From positions 8,612 to 72,611 of the forward strand of contig JAATFD010000041.1 of assembly GCA_015655375.1 (NCBI GenBank): a stretch of DNA of 64,000 nt. Direction: 5' to 3'. This DNA is from Actinomycetales bacterium. GTDB taxonomy: Bacteria > Actinomycetota > Actinomycetes > Actinomycetales > Actinomycetaceae. How positions within the stretch are numbered: position 1 is the first letter of the stretch; every line of letters starts with the position of its first letter. Positions 7,263 through 62,601 of the stretch are shown one piece after another. The notes below the pieces were generated by a model. The model was not told the origin of the DNA. It searched no databases and saw only the letters and a list, made by a program, of their open reading frames with translations. Position numbers and translations under genes: made by a program.

Positions 7263-7313
7263 GAGCCCACGATTCGGCATATCCCCAGCATCCGCCGGTA
7301 GAATCTCGACCCA

Positions 7314-10015: not shown

Positions 10016-10106
10016 GACACCGCCCCTCGAGGCACGCCAACTCTTCGCCTCGAAACACGTCGTCCAACGTGGGCCGGGGGCGGTGCGCTCGTCTCAGGAG
10101 AGAGCC

Positions 10107-12091: not shown

Positions 12092-12119
12092 CGGGATTCT
12101 CCCCATTCGTTCGTTCCGG

Positions 12120-13271: not shown

Positions 13272-13448
13272 GGGATTCAACCTACCGCGCCCACGCGATG
13301 TGCCCGACGCACCATCTCTCCACGGACATCGACCGAGACACACTCCACATCTGCCGGTTGTTCGCCTCCCCACTCCACGGCGCCCACGATCGGTGCCCGT
13401 CCACCGCGCGGATACCTCGCGTCCAGTCGCAAAGGCTACGATGCCCGG

Positions 13449-13979: not shown

Positions 13980-13996
13980 CTGACACCAGAAGCCGC

Positions 13997-15322
13997 TCAG
14001 AACCTCCGACTGCGCCGCCCCATCGAGACCAGTGGCCCTTCGGGCATCACGCGATCCGGGTCCAGCGAGGCCGGAACCGCGGCCAAGGAGACCGTGAAGA
14101 CTGGCGGACGCTGCTGGGTCAGCTCAATGCGTCCGCCCATCCCCTGCATGAGGTCGCGAGCCAGCGCCAACCCGATCCCACTCGACCCGTGCCCGGAGAC
14201 TCCGTACTCGAAGATGTCGGGTGCTAGATCCGCCTCGACGCCCCCGCCTTGGTCGGAAACCTCGATCATGACACCACGACCGTTCGTGGAGCGCCGGGAA
14301 GCGACCCGGGTCGTTCCCGCCCCATAACGCAGGGAGTTCTCGATGAGGGTAGCCAGCACCTGCGCCAGCTTCGCCTCATCGGCCAGGACCGGCAGAGCCG
14401 CCTCGTCGGCGAAGACGAGTTCGCGTCCAGCGTGGGCGAACGGAACCTCCCATTCCTCGCGTTCCGTGTTGAGGACCTCGAGGACGTGGATCGCCTCGGT
14501 CTGTCCGGCCGTCCGCGCATTCGAATCAAGCAGATCGGTGACGACACCTGTCAACCGCTCGACCTGTTCGAGGCTGCGTTGGGCCTCATTCCGGACTTCG
14601 TCCTCGGTGGAGATCATCTCGATCTCTTCCAACCGCATCGACAGGGCCGTCAACGGGGTCCGCAGCTGGTGTGAGGCGTCCGCCGCGAACTGGCGCTCGG
14701 CGGCCAATCGCCCCGCCATACGCTCGCCGGTCCGCGCCAGCTCGTCCTGGACGAGGTCGATCTCTTCGATGCCGGAGGGCTTGACGCGGGCACGGACCTG
14801 CCCGGACCCGATCTGTTCGGCCTGGGCCGCCAAATAGATCAGCGGCGCGGACAGGCGCCGCGACAGCCGATTCGCCAACGCCCAGCCGAGCAGGAAGGAC
14901 AGCACGATTCCGACGAGGAAGACGGAACACACCAGCGCGACACCGCGGATTGCAGGCGCCGCGGAGACCTCCATCCGCACCGTCGTCCCGAGTGCAGAAG
15001 AAGACACGGACGCGAGGCGTGGTCCCTCGATCTCCGCGCCGACGACGATCGTCGGTCCCGCAGACACCGCCACCCGAGTCCATGCCGTCGGCTCTCCGGC
15101 CGACACCGGTTGCGACCACGAATCGACGAGCGATTGAGTGACGTCCTGGTGGTCCGTGACCCGCCGGTCGACTGTGCGCAGCATGGACTGCACGCGCAGA
15201 TCAAGACTGTGCTGCTCGGAGTTCCACATGACGACCGACCCGAGGATCATGCCGGGGATCCCCAGAAGCAGGGCCACGACGGCGACCGCCGTCAGGATCA
15301 TCTGTACCGAACGCCTGCGCAT
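13997..15322 (-). CDS. Two-component sensor histidine kinase
   Basis: 441 aa with two TM helices flanking an extracytoplasmic loop. H-box: FAADASHQLRTPLTAL. N and G boxes: LIENSLRYG, DQGGGV, GSSGIGLALA. Confidence 0.9.
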   Translation of the reverse strand: MRRRSVQMILTAVAVVALLLGIPGMILGSVVMWNSEQHSLDLRVQSMLRTVDRRVTDHQDVTQSLVDSWSQPVSAGEPTAWTRVAVSAGPTIVVGAEIEGPRLASVSSSALGTTVRMEVSAAPAIRGVALVCSVFLVGIVLSFLLGWALANRLSRRLSAPLIYLAAQAEQIGSGQVRARVKPSGIEEIDLVQDELARTGERMAGRLAAERQFAADASHQLRTPLTALSMRLEEIEMISTEDEVRNEAQRSLEQVERLTGVVTDLLDSNARTAGQTEAIHVLEVLNTEREEWEVPFAHAGRELVFADEAALPVLADEAKLAQVLATLIENSLRYGAGTTRVASRRSTNGRGVMIEVSDQGGGVEADLAPDIFEYGVSGHGSSGIGLALARDLMQGMGGRIELTQQRPPVFTVSLAAVPASLDPDRVMPEGPLVSMGRRSRRF

Positions 15323-15427
15323 GGCTCGACCTCCCTCTCGTCGTTGCCGCCGTGAGGCTCGTCGCCGTCCCGGTGCGCCGACGCGCCCTCATCCTGGGTG
15401 GGACTGGGGCGTGTCGAGGGCTGAGCG

Positions 15428-16108
15428 TCAGTCCGTGCCGGTCTCGAAACGGAAGCCCATGCCCCTCACGGTGGTGATGTAACGTGGGTCGGCGGCGTCA
15501 TCCCCCAGCTTGCGCCGCAGCCAGGACACGTGCATGTCGAGGGTCTTCGTGGACCCCGTCGGATCGGATCCCCAGACCTCACGCATCAGCGTCTCGCGCT
15601 CGACGACGCTGCCGGCCTCGCGCACGAGGACGCGCAGCAGATCGAACTCCTTGGCGGTCAGCTGCAGTTCCCGCTCTCCCGCAAAGGCTCGGTGGGCGGC
15701 AACGTCGACACGAACGTCCTGCGCCACGAGGTCTCCTTCGGCCGCCTCCCCAACGGTGCGACGCAACAGGGCGCGCACTCGGGCCAGCAACTCGGCCAAC
15801 CGGAAGGGCTTGGTCACGTAGTCGTCGGCTCCGGCATCCAGGCCGACGACCATGTCCACCTCGTCCGTGCGGGCCGTGAGGATCAGAATCGGGACCACGC
15901 GCCCCTGGGAGCGAATCTCGCGGGCGACGTCGAGTCCGTCGATGTCGGGAAGCCCGAGGTCGAGGACGACGAGGTCGACGCCCTCAAGTTCGGACAGGGC
16001 TCCTCGACCGGTACCGTGGGCCCTCACTTCGTAGCCCTCACGTCCCAGGGCGCGGGCAAGCGGTTCGGAGATCGCGGGATCGTCTTCGACGAGGAGCACA
16101 GTAGTCAC
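15428..16108 (-). CDS. OmpR/PhoB-family response regulator
   Basis: VTTVLLVEDDPAISEPL...VVLDLGLPDIDG...TARTDEVD...GADDYVTKPF, plus a winged-helix C-terminus (LTAKEFDLLRVL...YITTVRGMGFRF). The start is uncertain: GTG at 16108 is preferred, while the track start at 16156 is a TTG. Confidence 0.88.
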   Translation of the reverse strand: MTTVLLVEDDPAISEPLARALGREGYEVRAHGTGRGALSELEGVDLVVLDLGLPDIDGLDVAREIRSQGRVVPILILTARTDEVDMVVGLDAGADDYVTKPFRLAELLARVRALLRRTVGEAAEGDLVAQDVRVDVAAHRAFAGERELQLTAKEFDLLRVLVREAGSVVERETLMREVWGSDPTGSTKTLDMHVSWLRRKLGDDAADPRYITTVRGMGFRFETGTD

Positions 16109-16235
16109 AGGCTCATGGTATCCCGCAGAGGCGCCACTTTCACTTTCCTTGACCAAGTAAAGGACGACTCACGTTGTGAAATACCCGTCTCCATTCCCGG
16201 TCATGGACGCGCGTGAACGTTCCCGAGCAAACGGC

Positions 16236-17366
16236 TCAGTCATAAGAACGGGACAACAGGTAGGGCGAGACCGTGCCAAATCCTCTCAATTCAGCGCTCG
16301 GAAACTCCTCAAGCGCGTATCCCGACCCACCCTTGCCCGCCGCGATCGCCGCTGCCGTTGTCGGATCGGTGAGGATCTGGCCCACCGGCGCCACGTCCAC
16401 GAGTCGAGACGCGAGGTTCACTGGTGGTCCGAAGACATCGCCCGACCGGGAGAACACATCGCCACGCACGAACGAGGCTCGCACCGGAAGAATGTCATCA
16501 TCGGCCTGGAGTCGCTCGATCAATGAGGTCACGACCCGCAACCCCGTCGACAGATCGTCGGCGATGAAGAAGACGGCATCGCCGATCATCTTCACGACGC
16601 GCCCACCGGCCTCCGTGACGGCGTTGCGCGACGCGTCCTCGAAACGTTCGATCAACCCGACCAGTTTTCCCCCGAGGATCGTCGAGGACGACGTGTAGGA
16701 GACCATGTCGACGAAGCCGAGTGAACGCGTCAGGGGGAAGCGCCTCCTCGCGGCCTCGTGACCGCGCTGAGCGACCTCGTGATCGACACGCGCCAGGAGC
16801 GCCTCAAGCTGACGCTGCCACGAATAGATCAGGGAACGCCCAAGGTAGTCGAGGTGGGTGCTCATCTGGTCGAGGGCGACCAACCGGGCGGACGTGTCGT
16901 CGAGGTCGAGGCGCCGCGCGTTGTCCTCGACCAAAGCCTCGACCTGCCAGAGTGCCAATCGATCGGCGATGTGGGACTCGGCGCGCAGCAAGGAGCGGGC
17001 GGTCGCCAGATCGATCGCGCCCGAGTCGATCAATTCGCTCCATGAGCGATACGCCTCAAGGTCCCGCTCGGTGAAGACCGCCCCATCGGGATCAACGGCA
17101 GGAAACCCCATGGCAAGCCAAAACTCGTGGACACGACGCAGTTGGGTCGAGGTCTGTTCGGCGAGGTCGCGCGCGCTCAGAGTCGGACTGCCGCCGAGGA
17201 GGAGGCCTTCATAAAGTCCGATCGTCGAGGTCGGCGCTGCTGCGTCGGGCATACCACCGGCGGGATCATGGGCCGTGGGCTCGGTCGAGGTCACGCTGGT
17301 TGCTCCTCCTGTGGTCATGTCGCGTCGGTAGGGCATCCGCTTGACCGTTACTGTGTCCGACGTCAC
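16236..17366 (-). CDS. Class III adenylate/guanylate cyclase domain protein with an N-terminal regulatory region
   Basis: The C-terminal half (SLGFVDMVSYTSSS...VVKMIGDAVFFIADD...GDVFGPPVNLASRL) fits the class III cyclase fold. The start is uncertain (GTG 17366, or ATG 17336/17318). Confidence 0.75.
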   Translation of the reverse strand: MTSDTVTVKRMPYRRDMTTGGATSVTSTEPTAHDPAGGMPDAAAPTSTIGLYEGLLLGGSPTLSARDLAEQTSTQLRRVHEFWLAMGFPAVDPDGAVFTERDLEAYRSWSELIDSGAIDLATARSLLRAESHIADRLALWQVEALVEDNARRLDLDDTSARLVALDQMSTHLDYLGRSLIYSWQRQLEALLARVDHEVAQRGHEAARRRFPLTRSLGFVDMVSYTSSSTILGGKLVGLIERFEDASRNAVTEAGGRVVKMIGDAVFFIADDLSTGLRVVTSLIERLQADDDILPVRASFVRGDVFSRSGDVFGPPVNLASRLVDVAPVGQILTDPTTAAAIAAGKGGSGYALEEFPSAELRGFGTVSPYLLSRSYD

Positions 17367-29880: not shown

Positions 29881-31614
29881 TCACTTCGTGAAACCGACGT
29901 CCTCTGCCTTGAAGTTCGCCAGACCAAAGGCCCCATAGTTCGCGAGGCTCTTCGCAGTCGCCGTCATCTCAATACGGCGGTAGATCGGGACGGTCATGAC
30001 ATCGTCCCAGATCTTCGTGTCCGCCTGGTTGACCAGATCGAGGCGCTCTTGCGTGTCGGCCGTGGTGGAGATCTGCTCCAACAGAGGCTCCAGATCCTGA
30101 TCGCAGTACCGTGAGAAGTTCGAACCGCCGTTCTGCGCCAGCGCATCACCGCATCCGTAGAGCTGGGCTGGAGTCCCCAGCGGGAAATCCGTGCCCTGCC
30201 ACGTGAAGCTCGTCACGCCGAAGCGGCCCGCAGGAACGTCCTCACTGAGGAACGTCGACGAGTCGAAGTTCTGGAAGTCAACCTTGACGCCGATGGCCTG
30301 CATCTGCGATTGCAGAAGCTCGCCCTCATTCTTGGACGTCGAGACATCCGGCATCATCGAGTAGGTGAACTCGAGTGTCTGACCGTCCTTCTCCCGATAG
30401 CCTGTGGATTCGTTGAGGGTCCAGCCGAGTGCATCCAGCTCCGAGCCCGCCTTCGTCGGGTCATAGGCGTAGGCCGCAGAGTTGTCCTGGTACCCGCTCT
30501 GACCGGGAAGGAAGAAGTGGTTGCCAACCATGAGCTCGGATGCGACCAGATCCGGAATACCCGCCAGGTCGGACTCTGCAATGGCCTCGCGATCGATACC
30601 TTTGACGAGCGCTTGACGAACCGCTTGATCCTGCAGGACGCCTGACTCGGAGTTGAACGTGAAGTGGCGCCACTGTAGGCCGCCCGCGCGGCGAATCTCA
30701 GCATCGGAGCGCGTCGCAGCCTGAGTGTATTGATCAGCGCTGATGATCCCCTTGAGGACGTCGATCTCCGAGTTCGCGAAGGCAGTGCCCATGGCCGAGT
30801 CATCCATTGCACGGAAAGACACCGTGTCGAGGAGCGGCGCGTCTCCCCACCAGTTCGGATTCGCCACCAAGTTCACGACCTGCTGGGCCTCATCGACTGA
30901 ATCGACAATGTACGGGCCGGCCAACCAGTCATTGTTGTAGCTGCTCCAGCCGTTGTTGAAGGTCTCTGCGTCCGAGACGCCTTCCTTCGCGTTCGGGCCA
31001 GCGAGCACATTCGCCCAGTCCGGATACTCGCCCTTGAATGTCACGACAACCTGAAACTGGTCTGCGCCCTGGGCAATGTCGGAGATCTGGCTCAGGCCGT
31101 CAGTCGCCGCACACTGGAAGTCTGCATTATCACCGTTGCAGGCTTTCCACGCGTAGTAGTAGTCCTCCCACGTGATGGATCGGCCCGAGCCCCACTTCGC
31201 CGCCGGGTTCAGCGTCAGCGTGACAACCTGCCCCATGTCAGCCGTCGCATCCTGGACGTCATAGCTCTCGAGGTAGTTCGTATTGGGCGTGTACGACCCA
31301 TCATCGGCAAAAATCCAATTGGCAGTGATCGGCAAGACAAATGCATAAATATCGTTGTTGTCGACCGAGTTACCCGCAGTCGACATCACATTCCAGCTGG
31401 ACGGCAGCGCAGTAATCGTCAGCCGGAGGTCCCCCCCCTGCTGAAGAGCATCACGAGACTGCGTATTGACGTCAGATGCCGCCAAAGTCTCCGTCGTGAC
31501 CGTCTCCGAACTCGAGTCCCCCGATTCATCGGACTTGCTGCCGCTCGAACAACCCGCCAGTGCCAGCGCCGCCACGACGCCAATCGCAGCGACTGCACGC
31601 GAAGTGCTCCGCAT
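29881..31614 (-). CDS. ABC transporter substrate-binding lipoprotein, family 5 (peptide/nickel type)
   Basis: The ATG at 31614 is preceded by GGAGG. MRSTSRAVAAIGVVAALALAGCSS is a lipobox. The roughly 575-aa size and sequence are typical of DppA/OppA-like SBPs. Confidence 0.88.
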   Translation of the reverse strand: MRSTSRAVAAIGVVAALALAGCSSGSKSDESGDSSSETVTTETLAASDVNTQSRDALQQGGDLRLTITALPSSWNVMSTAGNSVDNNDIYAFVLPITANWIFADDGSYTPNTNYLESYDVQDATADMGQVVTLTLNPAAKWGSGRSITWEDYYYAWKACNGDNADFQCAATDGLSQISDIAQGADQFQVVVTFKGEYPDWANVLAGPNAKEGVSDAETFNNGWSSYNNDWLAGPYIVDSVDEAQQVVNLVANPNWWGDAPLLDTVSFRAMDDSAMGTAFANSEIDVLKGIISADQYTQAATRSDAEIRRAGGLQWRHFTFNSESGVLQDQAVRQALVKGIDREAIAESDLAGIPDLVASELMVGNHFFLPGQSGYQDNSAAYAYDPTKAGSELDALGWTLNESTGYREKDGQTLEFTYSMMPDVSTSKNEGELLQSQMQAIGVKVDFQNFDSSTFLSEDVPAGRFGVTSFTWQGTDFPLGTPAQLYGCGDALAQNGGSNFSRYCDQDLEPLLEQISTTADTQERLDLVNQADTKIWDDVMTVPIYRRIEMTATAKSLANYGAFGLANFKAEDVGFTK

Positions 31615-31870
31615 GAATACCTCCATGGTTGATTGGGTTCTTAGTCGCTCAGACCCGGCACAGTTGGTACAGCAGTACTGGACGAAAGCAACTCGGGTCA
31701 AGCTTAGTCAAAGTCTCGGTAGGGTTCGAACCATATCCACCCGTTGACAGCATCTTCGCACCCAAACCGTAACCAACAGCTCAACTTTTGAGACAACTCT
31801 ATCGAAGAATCGAGACGAAAACCTCCGTGATCCGTCCATACGTTCCAACCCTGCAATTTTCAGGCTCTAT

Positions 31871-34093
31871 TCAAAACACCTTCTGAACCTGCGCAAAATG
31901 GCAGGCGACCCTGTCATCAATCCCGTCCTCGAATGTCCGAAGCTCCGGCGAATCGTCGATGCACATCTGTTTCTTGTCCTCAGGCAACGTGAGAAACAGT
32001 GGACACCGCGTCCTGAACCGACATCCCGACGGAGGATTCGCAGGTGACGGAAGGTCTCCCTGAAGGATCACCCGTTTGCGCGCCCGTTCCTTCGCGGGAT
32101 CAGGAATCGGAATTGCTGACAGCAAAGCGTGCGTATAGGGATGACGAGGACGGTCGAAGACCTCCTCGACCGACCCGACTTCGACCAGTTTCCCGAGGTA
32201 CATGACAGCAACACGATCTGCGATGTGTCGAATGACGGACAAATCATGAGCCACAAAGAGATACGACAAGCCAAGTTTCGTCTTGAGCTCGTCGAGCAAA
32301 TTGATCACGCCCGCCTGGATGGACACGTCCAACGCGGAGACCGGCTCATCCAACACCAGCAATTTCGGCTCCAGTGCGAGCGCCCTGGCAATTCCGATGC
32401 GCTGACGTTGGCCACCCGAGAAGTTCCGCGGATATCGGTTAAGGTGAGCCTTTTCCAAGCCAACGAGCTCAATCAGCTCCGCGACGCGGGTGTCGATGTC
32501 CTTCTTTGAAAAGCCATTGTATTTGAGCGGCTCGGCAATAACGTCATAGATCGGCATGCGGGGATCCAACGACGCCATCGGATCCTGGAAGACCACCTGC
32601 AAGTCGCGGCGGGTCTGCCTGCGGGTCCGCGCGTTCATCGTCGCTGTATCTTTGCCGAGGACGACTATTGTTCCGCTCTCGGGGGCCTTGAGATCAAGGA
32701 TCTCCATCAAAGTGGTCGTCTTCCCAGAGCCCGACTCACCCACCAAGCCGAGTGTCTCGCCCTGTCGGATCTCGAAAGAAATCCCGTCGACAGCGTGGAC
32801 GGTCCCGACTTGGCGCTTGAAGACAGAGCCCTTTGTCAACGGGAAGAACTTCGTCAGGTCGTCGATCTTGAGGACAGCTTCCCGCGACTCTCGATTCCTG
32901 CGCCCAGCCCCACGGTCGATATGGGCTGGAATCGGGTAGATATCCTGGAAGTGCCAGTCGTTGGCTCGGATGTCTTGGCTGCGCACGCACGCGGCGGCAT
33001 GAGGCTCGATGATTGAAGCGACTAAATTCTCAGCATCGACCTGACTGCGGTAGGAGTCCATCAGCGTCAAAGCAGGCTCACCTGCGTGGCACCGATCCTC
33101 AGCCAACGGACACCTCGGCGCAAAAGGACACCCAGTCGGCAGTTCCAGCATCGAGGGTGGGTTGCCCTCGAGTGTCGCCAAAGCATCCTCAGACGTCTGG
33201 TCGGGCCGCGGCAGAGCACCCAGCAGACCGATCGTGTAGGGCATTCGCGAGGCATAGAAGATGTCATCGACGGTGCCGCGCTCGACCACGCGGCCGGCGT
33301 ACATCACGGCGACCTTGTCGGCCAGACCCGCGACGACGCCGAGGTCGTGTGTGATCATGATGACCGCTGCGCCCGTCTCCTCCTGAGCCTTCTTCAGCAG
33401 TTCGAGGATTTGGGCCTGGATCGTCACATCCAAGGCGGTGGTGGGCTCGTCACAGATGATCAGGTCAGGATCGTTCGCGATCGCCATGGCGATCATCGCA
33501 CGCTGCCGCATGCCACCGGAGAACTCGTGTGGGAACGACTTGAAACGGACCTCGGGGTTCGGGATGCCAACCTCGCGCAAGAGTGCGATTGCGCGAGCTT
33601 CTGCTTCCTTGTCTGTCAGATCCCCATGGATCTTGAGTGCCTCGACGATCTGCGACCCGATCGTGTAAACGGGCGTCAGAGCGGACAACGGGTCCTGGAA
33701 GACCATCGCCACCTTGCGGCCTCGGATACGGGACATGTAGGCATCGTCGCGGCCGAGCAGCTCCAGACCGTGCATCTTGACGGAACCCTCCACTCGAGCA
33801 TTCTCATCGAGCAGGCCCATGATCGCCATCGAGGTCACAGACTTGCCGGACCCAGACTCACCAACGATACCGAGGACCTCACCGGGCATCAAGGAGAAGG
33901 ACACGCCGCGGACCGCGTGAACTTCGCCGTCCTCAGAGGGAAACGTAACGTTGAGGTCCTCAACCTCCAGAACCGGGACGCCCTCAGCACGGGTCGGAAG
34001 CTCAAAGTCGGTGCTCTCCCGCTTGCGTTGTGCTCTGGACGACTTCCTCGCCGACGAATCGAGTTCAGTGGTTGATTGTTGGATGTCGCTCAT
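31871..34093 (-). CDS. ABC transporter ATP-binding protein with two fused ATPase domains (DppD-DppF type)
   Basis: Two Walker A motifs ([16 protein letters not shown]), two LSGGxxQR signatures and two Walker B motifs. The ATG at 34093 has a GGGAGA RBS. Confidence 0.92.
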
Positions 34094-34145
34094 CGGATGT
34101 CTCCCTTCGTCGCACTGAAGCACATGCCGATCGCGTTGTGGACGC

Positions 34146-35111
34146 TCACGCCTGACCACCCGACTTCGATGAGGGATCGATCGCGTCGCGCAGACCGTCA
34201 CCCATGAAGTTGACGAAGATCAGCATCAAGGTCAAAACGGCTGCGGGCGCTAGGAACGCCCATGGGAACGAGGTCGCCATCTTCTGCCCCTCGGCGAGGA
34301 GGGTTCCCAACGATGTCTGAGGTGACTTGATGCCGAATCCGAAATACGACAGCGTCGTCTCCGACATGACTGCGGACACAACACCGAGCGTCGCATCGAT
34401 GATCAGGTACGACGACACGTTGGGAATGATGTGGCGCACGATGATCGACCACGCCGGCACCGACATGTACTTTGCGGCCCGCACGTAATCGAGGCTGATG
34501 ACCGACAAAGTCATCGATCTGACAACCCGGGCTGTCAGCATCCAGCCGAAGGCCGCCAGCAAGAGGACGAAAACAAGGGTCGAGCTCTTCGCCCCACTGA
34601 ACTTCTGGGAGATGATGGCGATTAGTAGGAACGATGGAATGACGAGCATGAGGTCTATGACCCACAGGAGAGTCTTGTCGATCGCCTTCCCGAAGTAGGC
34701 AGCCGCCGATCCGATCAGCGCCGCAGCTGCCGTCTGGATGGCAGCGACGGTGAGACCGATGATCAAGGACTTCCGTAAGCCCTCAACGGTCATGGCAAAA
34801 ATGTCACGGCCATTCTGGGAGGTTCCCCACCAATGATCGGTCGAAGGCCCTTGAAGGAAACTGGTTCCATCGACCTCGGTGTAGCCCCACGGGGATATGT
34901 ACTTTCCAAAGATCGAGAAAAGCACCATAAGGACGAACCCGATCATCCCGATCACGGCCGTTTTGTTCCGCAGAAAGCGGCGGAGGATCAGCTGCCGACG
35001 GCTCAGCCGCTTGTTCTGCACAGGGGCGAGATCGACCTCCTCAGCGATCACACCGCCGGTGAGCAAATCAACGCCATCATCATCTGTTTGGTCAGTGTTG
35101 TTAAAAGCCAT
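34146..35111 (-). CDS. ABC transporter permease (DppC/OppC type)
   Basis: 321 aa, multi-TM, binding-protein-dependent transport inner-membrane component pattern (EAA-like [23 protein letters not shown]). Confidence 0.88.
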
Positions 35112-35128
35112 ATAACTCTCCTCGCCGC

Positions 35129-36112
35129 TCAGCTGACCCGGACGCGCGGATCAACCGCGACAGTGAAGACATCGGACAACATCAGCCCGAAGAACGTACA
35201 GACTGCGGAGAAAGCAACGACGGCGACCGTGCCGTTGATGTCCTGTCCTTGGATCGACGTCACCGAGTAGCTGCCCATTCCATTCCATGCGTAAATCTGT
35301 TCCGTGATTGCTGCACCGGTGAACAGATTCGCGATGACGAAAGCGAAGTAGGTGGCCATCGGTACCAAGGCGGTCCGCAACGCATGCCGCCGCATGGCTT
35401 GCCCCTTTGTCAGGCCCTTCGCGCGTGCAGTCCGGACGTAGTCCGCACCCAGAGTATCGAGCATCAGATTGCGCTGGTACCGCGAATAGGTGGCGATTCC
35501 ACTCAACGACAGGGAGATGGTCGGCAATAGGAGATGTTGGAGTCGGTTGACGATCTCGGCACCTGGATAGCTACCGATCTGGCCTGTCTCACCAATGAAC
35601 TCGAAGAAACTGGTCCCGGTCGACTGGTTGAACCGCGTCGCCGCAATCTGAAGCACCGTAGCCAGAACGATGGTGGGCGTGGAGATGACGATAAGGCAGA
35701 GGATCGAAATCGTCCGATCCGAAAATTTGTACTGCCTGGCCGCTGTCCACGCTCCGAGTGCGACACCGCCGATGATCCCGACGAAGGACGCGATGAAGAT
35801 CAACCGAACCGAGACCCAAATCCTGGTTGCCAGCAGCTTGTTGACGTAATCGCCCTTCGGCGTCCGGCCCCAATCCCATTGGGTCACAACGGACTTCAGC
35901 CAGATCCAATACCTCTGGGCGACGGAAACGTCCGTATTGAGGTTGTATGACGCCAACTGGGCATCAATGGACGCCTTGTCGAGGTGCGGGTTCGTGTAGT
36001 CGAAGACTGACTTGGGTTCAAGGGCCGAGCCCGCGAGAAAGTACGCGAGCGTTACCGCAATGAACAACAGGATCACATAGTTCAGCAGTCGTTTAGCAAG
36101 GTATCGGTACAT
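35129..36112 (-). CDS. ABC transporter permease (DppB/OppB type)
   Basis: The ATG at 36112 gives MYRYLAKRLLNYVILLFIAVTLAYFL..., the typical DppB N-terminus. EAA loop: DYVRTARAKGLTKGQAMRRHALR. Confidence 0.88.
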   Translation of the reverse strand: MYRYLAKRLLNYVILLFIAVTLAYFLAGSALEPKSVFDYTNPHLDKASIDAQLASYNLNTDVSVAQRYWIWLKSVVTQWDWGRTPKGDYVNKLLATRIWVSVRLIFIASFVGIIGGVALGAWTAARQYKFSDRTISILCLIVISTPTIVLATVLQIAATRFNQSTGTSFFEFIGETGQIGSYPGAEIVNRLQHLLLPTISLSLSGIATYSRYQRNLMLDTLGADYVRTARAKGLTKGQAMRRHALRTALVPMATYFAFVIANLFTGAAITEQIYAWNGMGSYSVTSIQGQDINGTVAVVAFSAVCTFFGLMLSDVFTVAVDPRVRVS

Positions 36113-36461
36113 CGGGCTCTTACTTTCGGTGGACGCACTGCCGACTCTCTCTGACCCACATGACATGAGCCAAGGCCGGTCGACGGTGCTCAGCATTGCC
36201 GAAGGAATCACACCGTCCGCCCGGGAGGACTCTCCCATGGGCTATGCAAAGAATTCCAACGACTCGGTCAGCATACCGTCGGTTCACAGTACGACACGAT
36301 AGGGGCTTCGAAAAATCAGGAGCGGACGCAGGGTGACCATCCGGCCACAGCAAACACGTCTCAGCACCCTTCGCCCAGCGACACCGACTCGTGCCGAATG
36401 GACTGGACTCACCATGCCGGGGCACACCGCACAAGCCCCCGGAACGTCTAGCCTTGGAGCC

Positions 36462-56159: not shown

Positions 56160-57227
56160 ATGGCTCCCACACCGACGACGTCCAGTGACGACCACTTGTC
56201 CGCTCGGGAGTTCCCCGAGCATTTCCCCGACCCGTCTCTCGCGCCGACGGCGGATTCTGTCCTCGCCCTCGTCGGGAGCACTCCTGTGGTCCGACTCACC
56301 GAGGTGACGGAGGGTCTTCCCGCCCAGATCTTCGTCAAGCTCGACCAGACGAATCCCGGCGGGTCATCCAAGGACCGCATCGCCCTGCACATCGTGCGTG
56401 AGGCCGAGCGCAGCGGCGAACTGGCCCCGGCAGCCCGCATCATCGACAACGGAGCCGGCAACACCGCGATCGGGTTCGCTCTGGTCGGGGCCCACACCGG
56501 GCATCCCGTCACTCTGGTCGCCTCCTCCGAGCTGTCCCCCGCCAAGGAACGTTTGCTCAGACTCTACGGAGCCGAGATCCTGCGAGGGCGCCCTGACCTT
56601 CCCTTCTCGGATCCACAGAACTGGGAAGCGATCGCCGCGCGACACGCCGACGAGGATCCCGCCACCTGGTGGTCGCACCAGAGCGCCACGCCGACCAATC
56701 CGGACGCCCACTATCTGTCGACGGGACCCGAGATCTGGAAGCAGACCGCGGGGCGCGTCACCCATTTCCTCGCAGCCACCGCCACCGGTGGAACGGTGTC
56801 GGGAACGGGCCGCTACCTCAAGGAACGCAATCCCCGCATCCGGGTCATCACCACCGATTTCGTCGAAGGCCCCAACACCTCCAATGGTTTGGCCGCGGCC
56901 ATCGCCTCCGATTCCCCGGTCCCCGAGGACGAGCGGGCATGGCCCGCCAACATCGACACCGAGCTGATCGACAGGCTCGAATTGCGGCCTCGTCACGACG
57001 TCATCGAGCTCGGGTGGCGCCTGGCCCGCGAGGAGGGGCTGGCGCTCGGCCTGACTTCGGCGCTCTCCATCCTGGTCGCCCTCGACCTCGCTCGCGAGGC
57101 GACGCCGGAGGACACCTTTGTCGTTTTCAGTGCCGATTCCGCCCGCGACTACCTTGACCACGAATACAACGCGGAGTGGTTGCAGGCCCATGGCCTGGCC
57201 GACATCGCCGACGAGTACAACGACTGA
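56160..57227 (+). CDS. PLP-dependent cysteine synthase / cystathionine beta-synthase-like enzyme (PALP fold), divergent
   Basis: The ATG has a GAGGAGG RBS. ...LVGSTPVVRL...KLDQTNPGGSSKDRIA (PLP-Lys context)...GAGNTAIGFA...NPDAHYLSTGPEIW...ATATGGTVSGTGRYLKE. It deviates from the canonical TSGNTG and GTGGT loops. Confidence 0.75.
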   Translation: MAPTPTTSSDDHLSAREFPEHFPDPSLAPTADSVLALVGSTPVVRLTEVTEGLPAQIFVKLDQTNPGGSSKDRIALHIVREAERSGELAPAARIIDNGAGNTAIGFALVGAHTGHPVTLVASSELSPAKERLLRLYGAEILRGRPDLPFSDPQNWEAIAARHADEDPATWWSHQSATPTNPDAHYLSTGPEIWKQTAGRVTHFLAATATGGTVSGTGRYLKERNPRIRVITTDFVEGPNTSNGLAAAIASDSPVPEDERAWPANIDTELIDRLELRPRHDVIELGWRLAREEGLALGLTSALSILVALDLAREATPEDTFVVFSADSARDYLDHEYNAEWLQAHGLADIADEYND

Positions 57228-57240
57228 GACAGGAACACCG

Positions 57241-58419
57241 ATGCCTGAATCCACTGACACCGGCGACCTCGCGACCATCGAGGGCGCGTTCGAGGACGAT
57301 CCACGTCTGAAGAACCTCGAGGTCCTCGACTCTTCCGGGCTGATGGCAGCGGAGGTCTCCGATTCCTTCCACCGCCAACGCAACCACTTCCCCGCCCGCT
57401 TCGGCGAGGGGCCCGGGCTGATCCCCGTGATCCCCGGCCGCTACCGGCTGGTCGGATCGCCCGAATGCGGATGGAACCGCCGCCAGCGAATCGTGCGCCG
57501 TCTGCTCGGGCTGGAGGAGGCTCTGCCCATCGAGAACCTCATCACCCGCGCCGAGGACGGCAACTGGATCATCGCCCGGCGCGGGGGCGACCTCGTCGAG
57601 AGATTCGGTACTCGCCGACTCAACGACTTCTACGAGCGCACCGACCCGGACTTCACCGGGCGCGGGACCTCACCGACGATCATCGACGCCCAGACGGGAC
57701 TGGTCGCGACGAACAACTACCACACACTCAGCCTCGACCTCGAGACCGCGTGGAAACCGTTCCACACACAGGGCGCCCCTGACCTCTATCCCGAGGACCT
57801 GCGCCCGCGCATCGATCTGCTCAACCAGCAGCTCTTCGACGACGTCAACGACGGGACCTACCGGACGATCGAGGCCCCGACGGTAGAGGGCGCCCGAGCC
57901 GCTTACGGGATCTTCGAGGCGCGCCTGCGTGAGTACGACTTCCGGCTGGCGAGCAGGCGCTATCTGTTCGGCAACCGGCTGACCGACTCCGATGTCCGCC
58001 TGTTCCAGACCATCAGCTCCTTCGATCGAATCTATCGACCGGCTATGGTCGCGCGCCTGGGCGAGGGCGTCATCCGGCTGCCGGAGCTGGAGAACCTGTG
58101 GGGTTATGGCCGCGACCTGTTCCAACAGGGATTCGTCGACGAGGTCGAGTTGTACTACCTCACGCTTGTTCCCGGACCGTCGGGCAACTACCTGCCCGAT
58201 CCTTTGACGTTCGGCGGCGAGCTGCCTGCGCTCAGCCCCAAGGAATCCCTGGCCGCGTGGCGCGCGCCCTCGGGGCGCGAGGAACTGGGCGGGGATTCAA
58301 TCGCGCCCGGACCCGGCGACGGCGGGTCGGTGACCCTGTGGCACCTGCGCGGGGACCCGCTTGAGACCACGTTCCCGACACCCCACCTCGGTGCGCTCCA
58401 CACCGACCCGACCAAATAA
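57241..58419 (+). CDS. Xi-class GST / glutathionyl-hydroquinone reductase (YqjG/ECM4)-like protein, paralog 1, with a CGW active-site variant
   Basis: GRYRLVGSPECGWNRRQRIVRRLLGLEE (family: GRYHLYVSxACPWAHR...KGLE). ...FTGRGTSPTIID...YPEDLRPRIDLLNQQLFDDVNDG...RRYLFGNRLTDSDVRLFQTISSFDRIY. Confidence 0.75.
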   Translation: MPESTDTGDLATIEGAFEDDPRLKNLEVLDSSGLMAAEVSDSFHRQRNHFPARFGEGPGLIPVIPGRYRLVGSPECGWNRRQRIVRRLLGLEEALPIENLITRAEDGNWIIARRGGDLVERFGTRRLNDFYERTDPDFTGRGTSPTIIDAQTGLVATNNYHTLSLDLETAWKPFHTQGAPDLYPEDLRPRIDLLNQQLFDDVNDGTYRTIEAPTVEGARAAYGIFEARLREYDFRLASRRYLFGNRLTDSDVRLFQTISSFDRIYRPAMVARLGEGVIRLPELENLWGYGRDLFQQGFVDEVELYYLTLVPGPSGNYLPDPLTFGGELPALSPKESLAAWRAPSGREELGGDSIAPGPGDGGSVTLWHLRGDPLETTFPTPHLGALHTDPTK

Positions 58420-58430
58420 GGACACCCCTC

Positions 58431-59567
58431 ATGTCGTCCACCCCCATGCCCTCGGTGCCCACGACGCCTCGCTCCCCCACGCCGGCCATCACCTCGGCCT
58501 CGTCCTCCGACTCGGCTGGGGACTACCCCGAGCTCGCTGTCGAACGGACCCCGGACGGAACGTTTCGCCCTCAACACAATCTGTTCCCCGGCCGCTTCGG
58601 CATCGGCCCCGGTCTGACACCGCCCGAACCGGGTCGCTATCACCTGCTCGGCAGCCTCGATTGCGGGTGGTTCCGCCGCCAGCTCATCGTCCGTCGATTG
58701 GTAGGCCTGGAAGAGGCGATCCCCGTCGAGTTCCTCAAGAGCCACGACACCGACGGCTGGCACATCGGACACCAACCGGGCGGATCCATCGAGACCTTCG
58801 GGTACCACCGGCTCAACGACTTCTATCGGGCGACCACCGGTGCTTTCGCGGGTCGAGGCACATCTCCGACGATCGTCGACTTCGAGCAGGGAGTGGTTGT
58901 CACGAACGACTACCACACGATCAGCCTCGACCTCGAGACCGCGTGGGCTCCCTTCCACGCCGCAGGCGCCCCGAACCTCTACCCAGAGGACCTGCGCCCT
59001 GAGATCGACCTGCTCAATCAGCAGATCTTCGACGATGTCAACAACGGCGCAGACAAAGTGCTCTTCGCTCGCTCGCGGGGTGCGGCCCAAGCGGCCTACG
59101 CCGTCTTCGCGGCACGCCTGGCCGACTTCGACTTCCGCTTGACCAACAGGCGCTACTTGCTCGGCCACCGTCTGACCGATTCTGATGTCCGGCTCTACCA
59201 GACGCTCAGCTCCTACGACGTGCGGTACCGGCCCGGGATCGCGGCCAAGCTCGGGGACTCCGTCCTCCATCTGCGCGACTTCGAGCATCTGTGGGCCTAC
59301 GCGCGCGACCTTTTCCAGCAGGGGTTCTCCGACGAGGACGACCAGTTCCATCTCGGGCTGATCCCGAGCTCGCGCGGGACCTATTACGCCGACGACGACC
59401 TGCGGGGAGGCTCATCCTTCGACGGGACGAGCGACTGGGATCCCGAGACCGAGCTCGCCGGGTGGAGTGAGCCAGCCCGTCGAGAGACGCTCACGAACTC
59501 CGCCCCCTACTCGGGGCCTGGCGCGGGAGGGTCCGCCGAGCTCTGGCGTTTCGGGGGGCGCGCATGA
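58431..59567 (+). CDS. Xi-class GST / glutathionyl-hydroquinone reductase-like protein, paralog 2, with a CGW active-site variant
   Basis: GRYHLLGSLDCGWFRRQLIVRRLVGLEE...FAGRGTSPTIVD...YPEDLRPEIDLLNQQIFDDVNNG...RRYLLGHRLTDSDVRLYQTLSSYDVRY. It is colinear with paralog 1. Confidence 0.75.
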   Translation: MSSTPMPSVPTTPRSPTPAITSASSSDSAGDYPELAVERTPDGTFRPQHNLFPGRFGIGPGLTPPEPGRYHLLGSLDCGWFRRQLIVRRLVGLEEAIPVEFLKSHDTDGWHIGHQPGGSIETFGYHRLNDFYRATTGAFAGRGTSPTIVDFEQGVVVTNDYHTISLDLETAWAPFHAAGAPNLYPEDLRPEIDLLNQQIFDDVNNGADKVLFARSRGAAQAAYAVFAARLADFDFRLTNRRYLLGHRLTDSDVRLYQTLSSYDVRYRPGIAAKLGDSVLHLRDFEHLWAYARDLFQQGFSDEDDQFHLGLIPSSRGTYYADDDLRGGSSFDGTSDWDPETELAGWSEPARRETLTNSAPYSGPGAGGSAELWRFGGRA

Positions 59568-60862
59568 CGGCGGTCCCCCTGGACGACGACGCACGCGAGA
59601 CAGATCTGCGCAAAGTCAAGTTGCTCGGGACGGGCCTGCTCGACGTCGAGGTCGAGGGTGGCTACCGGATCCGTCTGGCTGACCCCGAGGAATATGACGA
59701 GGTCGGTAACGTCCTCGATGCAACCTACAGCGCGAGCCTGTCGATCTCCGACCTCTACAGGTCGGGCCTGCACCGCATCCGCGAGCGCGCGGAATCCTCT
59801 CTCGTGTGGCTCGTCGGTGATCCGGGCGGAGCAATTGTCGGCGCCGTCCTCACACCCCTGCCCCAGTTCCGCGCCGACCCGGATTTCACGTTCAACATCC
59901 TCGGCGTCCACCCGGACCACCGGGGCAAAGGATTGGCGCGGGCGCTGGTCGCGCACACGTTCCATGTCGGCGAGGCCTACGGATACCACCGGGTTCTCAT
60001 CCACTCCGGCCCGGACATGACCGCCGCGCATTCGCTATATCGATCGATGGGGTTCCACCGCCGCATCGACCACGAGACGATCATCGTCGACGGCGGACTG
60101 CGTCTGCTGCACTTCACCCGTCCGCTGACCCCGAAGCCGGGCGCAGTCCCGGCGCCCCTCATCGAGGACCGCCCGGAATTCGGTCCGGCACTCGATCCGA
60201 TCCACCTCCAGGCCAGGAGCACCATGACTGTCAATGCACCACCCGATCCGTACCGCTGGCCCGAGGACGAACGCGACCCCGTCCCCGCCGAGAACAAGGG
60301 CGAGCCGGGCTCCGTGGTCTCTCCCCTGGATCCTCGTTCGTGGCCATCGGTGGCGGGCCGCCGTGTGCTCGGGCCCGATGACATCGGTGATCGGCTTGAG
60401 GACGCCCTCGATCCGGTCATCGACCACGACCTCGTCGCGCCGTTGCTTCGCATTGCTTTCGGCGCTGACGACGATTCGGGGCCGGATTCCCATGCGAGCC
60501 TGCGCCGGCTCTTCTATGCCAGGCTCGGGTGGTTCGACGACCTGCTCGGCGGGCATCCCTTCCTCGGTGGCGATCGCCTGCTGGAACCGGACCTGCGGCT
60601 CTTCGGAGTGACCGTGACCTTCGACATCGCCTATCGGGGCCTCTTCCCGGCAGCAGACGCCGCGATCACCGATTACCCGAACCTGTGGCGTCACGCCCGA
60701 CGACTCTTCCAGACTCCGGGAGTGATCTCCGAGGACGAGAAGACCACGATCGGCCTCGTCCCTCGTCCGGACGGCACCTTCGCGGAACCATTGGGCCCGC
60801 CAGCCCCCCGGGAGCTTCTCCCCGATCTGCGTGCCGCATGGAACGAGCCCGTTCTCCGCTGA
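59564..60862 (+). CDS. Fusion protein: N-terminal GNAT acetyltransferase + C-terminal Xi-GST alpha-helical domain (no thioredoxin-like/Cys domain)
   Basis: ATGA overlap with the upstream gene. GNAT core: ...ILGVHPDHRGKGLARALVAHTF...SLYRSMGF. C-terminal part: ...HPFLGGDRLLEPDLRLFGVTVTFDIAYRGLF...YPNLWRHARRLFQTPGV. This part aligns by eye with the C-domains of the two upstream paralogs. Confidence 0.7.
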   Translation: MTAVPLDDDARETDLRKVKLLGTGLLDVEVEGGYRIRLADPEEYDEVGNVLDATYSASLSISDLYRSGLHRIRERAESSLVWLVGDPGGAIVGAVLTPLPQFRADPDFTFNILGVHPDHRGKGLARALVAHTFHVGEAYGYHRVLIHSGPDMTAAHSLYRSMGFHRRIDHETIIVDGGLRLLHFTRPLTPKPGAVPAPLIEDRPEFGPALDPIHLQARSTMTVNAPPDPYRWPEDERDPVPAENKGEPGSVVSPLDPRSWPSVAGRRVLGPDDIGDRLEDALDPVIDHDLVAPLLRIAFGADDDSGPDSHASLRRLFYARLGWFDDLLGGHPFLGGDRLLEPDLRLFGVTVTFDIAYRGLFPAADAAITDYPNLWRHARRLFQTPGVISEDEKTTIGLVPRPDGTFAEPLGPPAPRELLPDLRAAWNEPVLR

Positions 60863-60925
60863 AGGCAGCTCTGCCACCAGCAGCATTACGGTCCCAGTGC
60901 TGTCTCGGTGCTCGAGGCTGCTGTC

Positions 60926-61558
60926 ATGAGCGATTCAGACACCCCACGTCCCCCCTCCCTCACCGACCGTCTCCGCCAGGACCTGGCCGAGAGGCGCGTC
61001 CTCGTCCTCGACGGCGTCCTCGACGAGGACAACGGAACCGGGCTGGCAGCCCAGCTGGTCATGCTCGCCGACCGGGATCCCGCAGCCGACATCGATCTGT
61101 GGATCCGCTCCCCCGGCGGATCTGTCCCCGCCATGCTCGCCCTCCGAGACCTCATGAAGATGCTGCCCTGCGATGTCTCGACGCTCGTCCTCGGGATCGC
61201 TTACAGTGCGGGCCAGTTCCTGCTGTCCGCGGGAACGCCCGGAAAACGGCGCGCGTTGCCGCATTCGCGAGTCCTCATGCATCAAGGATCGGCAGGAATC
61301 GGCGGCAGCGCCGTCGAGGTCGAACTCCAGGCAGGCGACCTGCGCCTGACCAGGGACACCGTCCTCGACCTCATCGCCGCAGACACCGGGCAACCACTCG
61401 AGCGCATCCTCGCCGATTCCCAGCATGACCACTGGTACACGGCCGGCGAGGCACTCGACTATGGATTCGTCGACCACATCGTCGATTCCTTCGACCAGGT
61501 CGCCCCACCTCGACGATCGGGAGCGGGAGTCGGAGCGTCCGAGGAGACCACGCGATGA
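60926..61558 (+). CDS. Divergent ClpP1-like protease subunit (Ser/His/Asp positions retained)
   Basis: ...IDLWIRSPGGSV...GIAYSAGQFLLSAGTPGKRRALPHSRVLMHQGS...ILADSQHDHWYTAGEALDYGFVDHIV is colinear with actinobacterial ClpP1. ATG 60926 is preferred over GTG 60908. Confidence 0.75.
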   Translation: MSDSDTPRPPSLTDRLRQDLAERRVLVLDGVLDEDNGTGLAAQLVMLADRDPAADIDLWIRSPGGSVPAMLALRDLMKMLPCDVSTLVLGIAYSAGQFLLSAGTPGKRRALPHSRVLMHQGSAGIGGSAVEVELQAGDLRLTRDTVLDLIAADTGQPLERILADSQHDHWYTAGEALDYGFVDHIVDSFDQVAPPRRSGAGVGASEETTR

Positions 61559-62148
61559 GCTCCACCTACACGATCCCCCAGGTCATCGAGCAGAATCCCC
61601 ACGGCGAACGAATCATGGACGTCTACTCACATTTGCTCAATGAGCGGATCATCTACCTCGGTACACCGATCGACGCGGGGGTCGCCAATGCCGTGGTCGC
61701 CCAGTTCCTGTTTCTGGAGTCCTCCAGTCCTGAGTCCTCGATCCAGCTCTACATCAATTGCGAGGGCGGGGACCCCTCCGCGATGCTCGCCATCCATGAC
61801 ACGATGCAATTCATCCGACCCGACGTCGCCACGACCTGCGTCGGGGAAGCCGTGGGGCCGGGCGCGGTGCTCCTCGCGTCGGGAGCGCCCGGTCAGCGGG
61901 CGGCACTTCCCCACGCGCGAGTAGTTCTGCATCAGCCCTCCGCCCAGGGGCGCGGGGATATCCCCGACCTGATCCTCCAAGCGGACGAGGTTGTGCGCAT
62001 CCGCCGCGACGTCGAGGAGATCCTTGCATGCCATACCGGCCGGGACGCGGCAGAAGTCCATGCCGACACCGATCGGGAACGGGTCCTGACCGCCGAGGAT
62101 GCCCACGACTATGGCGTCATCGACACCGTGCTCGGCCAGCGGGGGTGA
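61555..62148 (+). CDS. ClpP2-like subunit lacking the catalytic Ser and Asp (ClpR-like pseudo-protease)
   Basis: YTIPQVIEQNPHGERIMDVYSHLLNERIIYLG...YINCEGGD...CVGEAVGPGAVLLASG (canonical GQAASMG)...VVLHQPS...ADTDRERVLTAEDAHDYGVIDTVL (canonical TERDRF). The codons are GGG at 61855-61857 and GAA at 62077-62079. ATGA overlap with the upstream gene. Confidence 0.75.
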   Translation: MSSTYTIPQVIEQNPHGERIMDVYSHLLNERIIYLGTPIDAGVANAVVAQFLFLESSSPESSIQLYINCEGGDPSAMLAIHDTMQFIRPDVATTCVGEAVGPGAVLLASGAPGQRAALPHARVVLHQPSAQGRGDIPDLILQADEVVRIRRDVEEILACHTGRDAAEVHADTDRERVLTAEDAHDYGVIDTVLGQRG

Positions 62149-62163
62149 AAGAGGGGCCGTCCG

Positions 62164-62520
62164 TCAGGCCGCGAGCAGGTGGACCGCGTCCATTCGAGCG
62201 GAAGTGCCAGAGGCTGTCGCTCCGACCTCGTTCCGAACGGAGGCGACGCTCCCGACCCCAAGGCTCCGGGACACCTCCTCCGTGAGGTCGACCAGGGTCA
62301 GGCCGAGCGCTCGCGCGACGGCTGCCACCACCTCGCTGGACGGTTCCTTGAGCCCCCGCTCAATCTCGGAGAGATACTGGGGCGAGACGCCGGCACGAGC
62401 CGCGGTCTCCCCCAATGTCTCGTCGCGATCGTGGCGGGCGTCGCGCAGACAATCGCCCACGACCTCTCGCCACAGCGGCTCGCGCGCGGCACCGCCTTCG
62501 TACACCGTGATCTGGATCAT
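62164..62520 (-). CDS. clgR: ClgR/PopR-type XRE-family Clp gene regulator
   Basis: ...LWREVVGDCLRDARHDRDETLGETAARAGVSPQYLSEIERGLKEPSSEVVAAVARALGLTLVDL... closely follows the ClgR core (REVVGD.LR...YLSEIERG.KEPSSE). The C-terminus is ...VHLLAA. Confidence 0.8.
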   Translation of the reverse strand: MIQITVYEGGAAREPLWREVVGDCLRDARHDRDETLGETAARAGVSPQYLSEIERGLKEPSSEVVAAVARALGLTLVDLTEEVSRSLGVGSVASVRNEVGATASGTSARMDAVHLLAA

Positions 62521-62601
62521 GGTTCATGCTACGGCGGCCGGGATGCCCACCCGCGGTGCCTCCGCTGTGAGCAGATTCCGCATCTCAGAAGGAGAATGAT
62601 C

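Follow-up and report, generated by a model that had tools for sequence, protein, structure and literature searches.

The closest described system to the Clp genes considered here is the clpP3clpP4 pair of Streptomyces lividans and Streptomyces coelicolor, which is activated by PopR (Viala et al. 2000, 2002, cited in PMC9765437, PMC9775585 and PMC12607617). In these three citing papers, PopR is described as a ClgR paralog that is degraded by ClpP1P2, so that clpP3clpP4 is expressed only upon failure of the housekeeping protease; for ClgR and Lon, the site of recognition is reported to be the two alanines at the C-terminus. In Streptomyces ClpP1P2, the catalytic triad of ClpP1 alone is required, and ClpP2 recruits the ATPases. 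As for the thiol-type enzymes discussed below, the closest characterised relative of their glutathione S-transferases (GSTs) is Corynebacterium glutamicum MstX, which carries a CPWA motif and acts both as a monothiol thiol transferase and as a mycothiolyl-hydroquinone reductase. Salvage of S-(2-succino)cysteine (the yxe route) and of S-alkylcysteine in Bacillus subtilis proceeds by acetylation, cleavage of the C-S bond and deacetylation. Here we analyzed a 64,000-nt stretch of DNA (hereafter the window) from an Actinomycetaceae genome of Schaalia/Actinomyces-like type, of which only these 64 kb are visible. It contains six adjacent + strand genes (g1-g6, 56160-62148) followed by a convergent gene for an XRE-family regulator. 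We conclude that the six genes probably belong to two independent units that abut: unit A (g1-g4, 56160-60862), which encodes thiol-type enzymes, and unit B (60856-62520), which comprises an operator, the clpP-like genes g5 and g6 and the XRE gene.

The six genes are tightly packed. The gap between g1 and g2 is 13 nt and that between g2 and g3 is 11 nt, g3 and g4 overlap in ATGA, g4 and g5 are separated by 63 nt, and g5 and g6 again overlap in ATGA. These coordinates and junctions, taken from the ORF list of the window, reproduce those of the preliminary description of this DNA, which had also noted that the 63-nt gap lacks a convincing hairpin. No intrinsic terminator is indeed present there, but the gap is not featureless, as it holds a conserved operator. 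This predicted PopR-type operator (60856-60883, no strand) consists of two tandem 13-bp palindromes of the form CTGCC-N3-GGCAG, 15 bp apart, upstream of g5. Box 1 (CCGCTGAAGGCAG, 60856-60868) has a degenerate left half and overlaps the stop codon of g4; box 2 (CTGCCACCAGCAG, 60871-60883) starts ~55 nt before the ATG of g5. The sequence CTCTGCCNNNNGCAG has a single exact match in the 64 kb, at the operator. Box 2 deviates at one position from the S. lividans PopR site, TCTGCC-3N-GGCGAATCTGCC-3N-GGCAGA (PMC9775585), and box 1 at two; the half-site, the 3-nt spacer and the 15-bp repeat are equal. Tandem boxes with the same spacing and offset (~55 nt to the ATG) occur in the window and in the fetched related loci L010, L011, L012 and L022, and tandem boxes are also present in L026. 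By analogy with Streptomyces, we infer that the operator is bound by the XRE regulator and that clpP expression is conditional.

The same element was not found in front of unit A. Upstream of g1 and of unit A in other genomes, only scattered one-mismatch matches within coding sequence were seen in 34 loci; one of these, in L027, is identical to box 2 of the window but is non-tandem and lies inside a gene. PopR control of unit A was therefore rejected, as no tandem box precedes unit A in the loci searched.

The genes downstream of the operator form a self-contained arrangement. In the window, g5 (60926-61558, + strand, 210 aa; a ClpP1-like/ClpP3-type subunit) and g6 (61555-62148, + strand, 197 aa; a ClpP2-like/ClpP4-type subunit) are followed by the XRE gene (62164-62520, - strand, 118 aa; HTH_31 and HTH_3 at 1e-11), which is convergent with g6. 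The identical clpPa-clpPb-convergent XRE order is found in L010 (Acidipropionibacterium virtanenii), L011 and L012, where a 210-aa ClpP, an ATGA overlap and a 195-aa ClpP-like protein precede an XRE gene on the opposite strand. The flanks of this unit differ among the three loci, and in A. virtanenii they consist of accessory genes. Neither tig nor clpX flanks g5 and g6, whose neighbors are g4, the XRE gene and a HIBADH-like gene, and the same is true of L010-L012. Orthologs of the XRE protein (56-76% identical) adjoin the clpP pair in L010, L011, L012, L022 and L026. The XRE protein of the window ends in HLLAA and its orthologs in LALAA, FALAA, SLVA or QLVA, and, judging from its sequence, it is a candidate PopR/ClgR-type activator and Clp substrate.

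Unit B thus has in common with Streptomyces clpP3clpP4-popR a bicistronic pair that is not linked to tig or clpX, a small XRE regulator at the locus, tandem TCTGCC-N3-GGCAG(A) boxes 15 bp apart and an Ala-Ala tail on the regulator. It differs in its Actinomycetaceae host, in the degenerate box 1 that lies over the stop codon of a co-directional upstream gene and, possibly, in a second Clp subunit without the nucleophile Ser. Judged by arrangement, operator and regulator tail, unit B is most likely the counterpart of the Streptomyces system. In addition, the sequence CCGCTGTGAGCAG at 62562-62574, upstream of the XRE gene, resembles box 1 (CCGCTGAAGGCAG; 10/13 identical), and more distinct boxes are located in front of the XRE gene in L010 (8971), L022 (5919) and L026 (928). 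These matches hint at autoregulation of the XRE gene.

The preliminary description had called g5 and g6 a degenerate ClpP pair, and this applies to g6 only. The g5 product (PF00574, 2.4e-48) aligns to ClpP1 of Mycobacterium smegmatis and Mycobacterium tuberculosis with Ser, His and Asp kept, and its orthologs in L010, L012, L022 and L026 are 66-70% identical and have the triad in all cases. In contrast, alignment of g6 to ClpPs in the PDB confirmed the predicted loss of Ser from a ClpP2-like subunit: the nucleophile is replaced by Gly (GEAVGPGA vs GQAASMGA) and Asp by Glu, and His is kept. Both proteins pass the Pfam PF00574 threshold and both are under the NCBIfam ClpP cutoffs. The 120 closest g6 homologs listed (P0015-P0133 among them) share 70-76% identity with it and belong to Nocardioides, Actinomadura, Cellulomonas, Microbacterium, Acidipropionibacterium, Georgenia and others. 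In these sequences the nucleophile column contains Ala in 76, Ser in 17, Gly in 15 and Asp in 8, and nearly all have INCEGGDPS instead of INSPGGS. This pattern implies that a ClpP ring widespread in Actinomycetes may be non-catalytic by nature. We found no paper on such a Ser-variable, INCEGGDPS ClpP subfamily, and a search of the literature on a Ser-less Streptomyces ClpP4 and on ClpP3/P4 phylogeny returned nothing usable.

A division of labor between the two rings would fit what is known of asymmetric ClpP1P2 cores (Streptomyces hawaiiensis, M. tuberculosis), with g5 as the catalytic ring and g6 as a docking ring dispensable for catalysis. That Streptomyces ClpP1P2 requires the ClpP1 triad alone and recruits the ATPases through ClpP2 would simply account for the loss of Ser in the g6 family, while the g5 family keeps its triad. 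Unlike in those cores, the inactivity of g6 appears to be fixed in its sequence, with Gly for Ser and Glu for Asp, and across the subfamily the nucleophile position is Ala, Gly, Asp or Ser. The ClpR proteins of cyanobacteria and plastids are also inactive ClpPs but belong to an unrelated lineage. By analogy, g6 is probably a non-catalytic ring that docks an unfoldase. In the proposed circuit, the XRE protein would bind the tandem boxes in the 63-nt gap and activate the bicistronic clpP pair. Its LAA tail would make it a substrate of housekeeping Clp (a housekeeping locus being assumed), and it would accumulate and turn the pair on only if housekeeping Clp were impaired or overloaded. The g5 subunit would then form the catalytic ring, and the Ser-less g6 the ring that docks ClpX or ClpC.

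The four genes of unit A encode enzymes of known families with unusual features, and the family assignments of all six products made earlier were upheld by Pfam and NCBIfam HMM searches, as had been proposed, and by PDB comparisons. The first gene, g1 (56160-57227, + strand, 355 aa), encodes a divergent fold-type-II pyridoxal phosphate (PLP) enzyme similar to cystathionine beta-synthase (CBS) and CysK. Its PALP domain (1.8e-51) and the PLP lysine in SSKDR are present, as had been claimed. It shares the fold-type-II PLP domain and the SxKDR lysine with the CBS/O-acetylserine sulfhydrylase family (Rv1077, CysK, CysM), and the closest PDB entry is the catalytic domain of M. tuberculosis CBS, Rv1077 (~40% identity). 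It is unlike this family in that Bateman domains are absent, the Asn-loop is GAGNT in place of TSGNT, the glycine loop is also altered, and the scores are under every NCBIfam equivalog cutoff (CBS, 244.8 vs 510 bits; CysK-A, 237.5 vs 387).

Both g2 (57241-58419, + strand, 392 aa) and g3 (58431-59567, + strand, 378 aa) encode paralogs of Xi-class GSTs, which we designate GSTx. The start of g2 at ATG 57241 is plausible from the N-termini of homologs, although the ORF is open back to TTG 57118. The two proteins are 52% identical, and g3 was assigned by alignment with g2 and relatives. Structures of Xi-class GSTs match both over both domains (E 1e-44 to 1e-49; for g2, 4e-49 with PDB 4PTS and 3e-44 with 3M1G). 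They resemble Escherichia coli YqjG, PcpF and C. glutamicum MstX (NCgl1216; 3M1G, 4PTS) in the two-domain fold, the position of the Cys and, as far as motifs indicate, the Tyr residues, and are ~35-40% identical over the full length to Xi-class GST/glutathionyl-hydroquinone reductases. They differ from Xi-class GSTs in having CGW[NASYFG]RR instead of CPWA(H)R, in a conserved C-terminal extension (WREPSGRE...SGPGxGGSxELW) and in the linkage of their genes to that of a GNAT-GST_C fusion (GNAT-GSTc). The active-site motif is CGWNRR in g2 and CGWFRR in g3, in place of CPWAHR, and the catalytic Cys is kept. The three Tyr of the triad are present in g2 (NDGTYR, FDRIYRP, LWGYGRD); here the residue equivalence of g2 and g3 to YqjG is assumed from sequence motifs. 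In g3, the first triad Tyr is replaced by Asp (NNGADK vs NNGTYK) at a position that is otherwise nearly invariant, and this paralog may have an altered catalysis or a regulatory role.

The last gene of the unit, g4 (59564-60862, + strand, 432 aa), encodes a GNAT (PF00583, 6e-12, 46.2 bits vs a cutoff of 20.7; acetyl-CoA motif HRGKGLA) fused to a GST C-domain. Its C-terminal half passes the PF13410 cutoff, resembles the C-domains of Xi GSTs and contains no Cys, and a thioredoxin-like domain is absent from g4. An AlphaFold2 model, of moderate overall confidence (predicted local distance difference test score, pLDDT, 61), has the GNAT at 25-190 (pLDDT 70-90), the helical domain at 280-400 and a linker of ~80 residues at 198-279 with pLDDT <50. 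The earlier view of a GNAT joined to the helical GST domain alone was confirmed by these Pfam matches, C-domain similarities and the model. In Foldseek comparisons the GNAT groups with N-acetyltransferases of amino-acid analogues, and it weakly matches mycothiol synthase MshD (E 4e-5, far under the cutoff). It was also observed that g4 is ~45-50 residues shorter between the GNAT and the helical domain than all homologs (P0002-P0008), and it is the shortest member of the family, the remaining homologs having 439-527 aa.

The association of GSTx with GNAT-GSTc is conserved, and both are rare. A word-indexed search of 5.8 billion proteins gave 13 matches to GNAT-GSTc, and a full HMMER scan of 1.84 billion representatives gave only ~25-30 full-length clusters. 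With one genome per GTDB species, CGW-type GSTs (52-63% identical to g2) occurred in only ~22 species, all with C-G-W-x-R-R; relatives at <=43% identity have CPWAHR or CHWSNR. A GSTx gene lies directly upstream of the GNAT-GSTc gene in ~23 of 25 judgeable related loci, the slot held by g3 in the window. The pair was detected in Ancrocorticia, Acidipropionibacterium, Propioniciclava, Propionicimonas, several Bifidobacterium, Actinomycetaceae and metagenomic contigs, and the families that carry it are Bifidobacteriaceae, Actinomycetaceae and Propionibacteriaceae. Named carriers include Bifidobacterium psychraerophilum, B. thermophilum, Ancrocorticia populi and Acidipropionibacterium virtanenii. 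Many of the actinobacterial carriers are metagenome-assembled genomes, whose isolate names we take to denote termite-gut samples. The usual companion of the pair is a Dpp/Gsi-like peptide ABC importer, with two permeases, a fused double ATPase and an SBP_bac_5/TIGR04028-like binding protein. A second usual companion is an amidohydrolase-superfamily enzyme closest to Xaa-Pro dipeptidase, and a canonical CP[WY]A Xi-GST sometimes accompanies the pair. In L005, an ortholog of g1 (66% identical) is flanked by a canonical Xi-GST on one side and by a second GSTx on the other, and in L027 a relative of g1 (39% identical) is located just upstream of a GSTx. Because of these PALP-GSTx pairings, g1-g2 and g3-g4 look like two sub-modules that were brought together. 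The earlier notion that the thiol-type genes g1-g4 belong together is thus borne out by the GSTx/GNAT-GSTc loci and by the PALP genes next to GSTx in L005 and L027.

CGW-type GSTs (CGWSRR, 48-53% identical) without a GNAT fusion were also observed in a few Proteobacteria, namely Pseudothauera nasutitermitis, Brenneria corticis and Candidatus Symbiopectobacterium (L029, L030, L034). This distribution suggests horizontal spread of the CGW-type GST in plant- or insect-associated niches. Separately, Bacillota (Lachnospiraceae, Oscillospiraceae, Ruminococcus, Paenibacillaceae and others; L039, L044, L048, L063, L064, L069, L071, L080, L083, L087, L088, L091) have Xi-GST-like paralogs, often in tandem, with CHWSNR and CNWSNR beside CPWAHR.

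With regard to the function of unit A, we tentatively suggest, as one possible reading, that its substrates are S-linked conjugates of the cysteine or glutathione type, or disulfides, which it would salvage or detoxify, because of the chemistry of its families and the companion genes found elsewhere (importer, amidohydrolase and, once, a yxe-like set). The GSTx Cys would attack the sulfur of the conjugate in a de-thiolation of the Xi type, the GNAT of g4 would N-acetylate the amino-acid moiety, and the PLP enzyme g1 would carry out beta-replacement or beta-elimination at cysteine. The yxe-like set occurs in L006, where the region 7139-16879, on the strand opposite to the pair, contains an M20 deacylase, a response-regulator-type DNA-binding protein, an amino-acid ABC system and two FMN monooxygenases of the NtaA/DmoA type, as well as a fusion of NAD_binding_9 and GNAT. 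These genes look like a set for sulfur or S-conjugate salvage. Like the yxe routes, unit A and its relatives combine a GNAT with the logic of an importer and a hydrolase, and L006 adds the M20 deacylase, the luciferase-like (LLM) monooxygenase and the amino-acid ABC system. In contrast to these routes, monooxygenase, lyase and deacetylase are all missing from the window, the importer of the relatives is of the peptide (Dpp/Gsi) type, and a GST-like Cys enzyme as the proposed cleaver is unprecedented there. The S-(2-succino) lyase of the alternative yxe pathway was considered as a GST precedent and rejected, as it is a class-I lyase. The idea of S-conjugated cysteine with N-acetylation, put forward in the preliminary description, can be retained as a lead on account of L006, but not for the window itself, where monooxygenase, lyase, deacetylase and importer are all absent beside unit A and the acetyltransferase alone represents the mercapturate/yxe-type set. 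A Dpp/Opp-type transporter of the window (30250-36240, - strand; binding protein, two permeases and a double ATPase ORF) was examined as the importer of unit A and rejected, since it is only 25-48% identical and lies 20 kb away.

A more specific, and doubtful, proposal is that the CGW Xi-GST and GNAT-GST_C, with the CBS-like PLP enzyme in some genomes, form an undescribed cysteine-recovery pathway. It would draw on cysteinyl or glutathione-type peptides, S-conjugated or linked by disulfides, that mycothiol-less actinobacteria either import or make themselves, with the GST-like Cys enzyme replacing the monooxygenase or lyase; and in Actinomycetaceae unit A would be retained beside the PopR-controlled backup Clp as a thiol/proteotoxic-stress island.

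An opposite direction of the chemistry seems rather improbable to us. Bifidobacteriaceae, Actinomycetaceae and Propionibacteriaceae are not known to have mycothiol, and unit A, which occurs in these three families, could serve there to produce an N-acetylated low-molecular-weight thiol derived from cysteine, with the PLP enzyme forming the C-S bond and the GNAT acting like MshD. The weak MshD match of g4 points in this direction, as does the window version of the unit, which has a CysK/CBS-like enzyme and no importer. However, most loci pair a peptide importer with a dipeptidase-like hydrolase and have no PLP enzyme, which gives them a catabolic look, no ligase or glycosyltransferase is found among the companions, and unit A is too rare and patchy for the main thiol pathway of a lineage. 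A search for literature on the thiols of Bifidobacterium, Actinomyces and Propionibacterium returned nothing usable.

We consider it unlikely that a single operon spans the six genes and couples a mercapturate-like or low-molecular-weight-thiol pathway to a Clp pair dedicated to it, as the preliminary description had suggested. In favor of this model, all six genes point in one direction and are closely spaced, the 63-nt gap has no terminator, and the clp unit also lies beside unit A in L022 and L026 although the other flanks are not shared. Nevertheless, two findings of the kind named beforehand as contrary to this model were obtained. The clp pair is not tied to this neighborhood, since it forms a self-contained clpP-XRE unit beside unrelated genes in L010-L012, and it probably has control of its own, as the predicted PopR-type operator lies in the 63-nt gap and its offset to the start of clpP is conserved. 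In addition, ~32 of ~35 unit A loci have no clpP within 10 kb, the clp-XRE unit is widespread without unit A, and the PopR-like tandem box is missing upstream of g1 and of unit A elsewhere. Conservation of the neighborhood therefore holds for the GSTx/GNAT-GSTc pair but not for its combination with clpP, which was found in only 3 of ~35 loci (the window, L022 and L026), all within one family, Actinomycetaceae. In L022 and L026, XRE-clpPb-clpPa stands beside amidohydrolase-GSTx-GNAT/GSTc on the opposite strand, 0.6-0.9 kb from unit A, and because of this divergent orientation co-transcription is impossible in those genomes. In A. virtanenii, unit A and the clp unit are ~1.5 Mb apart on the chromosome. 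As the three adjacent cases are all Actinomycetaceae, the simplest reading of the adjacency is a family-level inherited local synteny with inversion.

A 31-aa ORF (MNNQ.H.V.PVA.AS.KL.RMCR...MSC.L) was also observed between the divergent clpPa and amidohydrolase-GSTx-GNAT/GSTc genes in L022 (8023-8118) and L026 (2960-3055). It has a strong AAGGAGG ribosome-binding site and a Cys/Met-rich tail, and nothing similar precedes g1. From its sequence, it is possible that it is a leader peptide that senses sulfur amino acids.

The interpretation favored here, two abutting units with a PopR-controlled Clp pair in one and conjugate-processing enzymes in the other, has several observations to contend with. 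Adjacency in L022 and L026 with the other flanks unshared is more than a naive chance expectation would give. In the window no terminator separates g4 from g5, box 1 lies over the g4 stop, and some read-through from unit A into clpP is possible; box 1 is, moreover, degenerate. In unit A, the substrate loops of g1 are altered, and g3 is short of one triad Tyr. The peptide importer and the amidohydrolase usual in relatives are missing beside unit A in the window. Finally, the existence of a housekeeping tig-clpP1P2-clpX locus in this genome is assumed.

That g5 and g6 are instead the sole, housekeeping ClpP1P2 under a ClgR-type regulator, with no backup pair, is improbable: among solved structures g5 is nearest to mycobacterial ClpP1 and g6 to ClpP2, ClgR, too, is a small protein of the XRE family and ends in Ala-Ala, and only 64 kb of the genome are visible, but tig or clpX is not adjacent, the boxes fit the PopR site and not the ClgR site GTTCGC-5N-GCG, both proteins are under the curated ClpP cutoffs, the g6 family has INCEGGDPS and a variable nucleophile position, and the corresponding unit of A. 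virtanenii lies among accessory genes.

Other features of the region were also recorded. Public gene calls agree for g1, g4, g5, g6 and the XRE gene (exact look-ups or database entries). In cluster look-ups, the window proteins are singletons at 90% clustering, and TypA of the window is 91% identical to TypA of an Actinomyces sp. metagenome-assembled genome and of Schaalia naturae. No riboswitch or leader RNA was found upstream of g1 or elsewhere when the whole window was searched with Rfam at gathering thresholds. Between 55.7 and 62.7 kb, nothing resembling a consensus sigma-70 promoter or an intrinsic terminator exceeded the shuffled expectation, and neither was found in the 63-nt gap. Upstream of g1, the segment 51540-55938 contains greA, an AI-2E family transporter gene, msrA and genes for an FKBP-type peptidyl-prolyl isomerase and a Bax-inhibitor-like membrane protein, which gives it a stress-related flavor. 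A wider synteny was considered and rejected, as the greA, AI-2E transporter, msrA, FKBP, Bax-inhibitor, HIBADH-like and GATase genes have no counterparts in the fetched loci.

The single-operon model that this locus invites is thus probably wrong, and its Clp pair would be a self-regulated backup protease and no partner of the thiol enzymes. The Clp part is of a known type; the remaining novelty is the consistent, unexplained gene partnership of unit A within known enzyme families. A PopR-type circuit, studied almost only in Streptomyces, is indicated in Actinomycetaceae, Propionibacteriaceae and other Actinomycetes. Its second Clp ring is often hard-wired inactive, which would provide natural support for the model of one catalytic ring and one docking ring, and this may bear on antibiotics that target ClpP (acyldepsipeptides, ADEPs, and beta-lactones) in Actinomyces-like pathogens. 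The CGW Xi-GST and GNAT-GST_C pair, together with the peptide importer, is a candidate route for salvage of sulfur or thiol conjugates in gut and host-associated actinobacteria, and its carriers include cysteine-dependent bifidobacteria.

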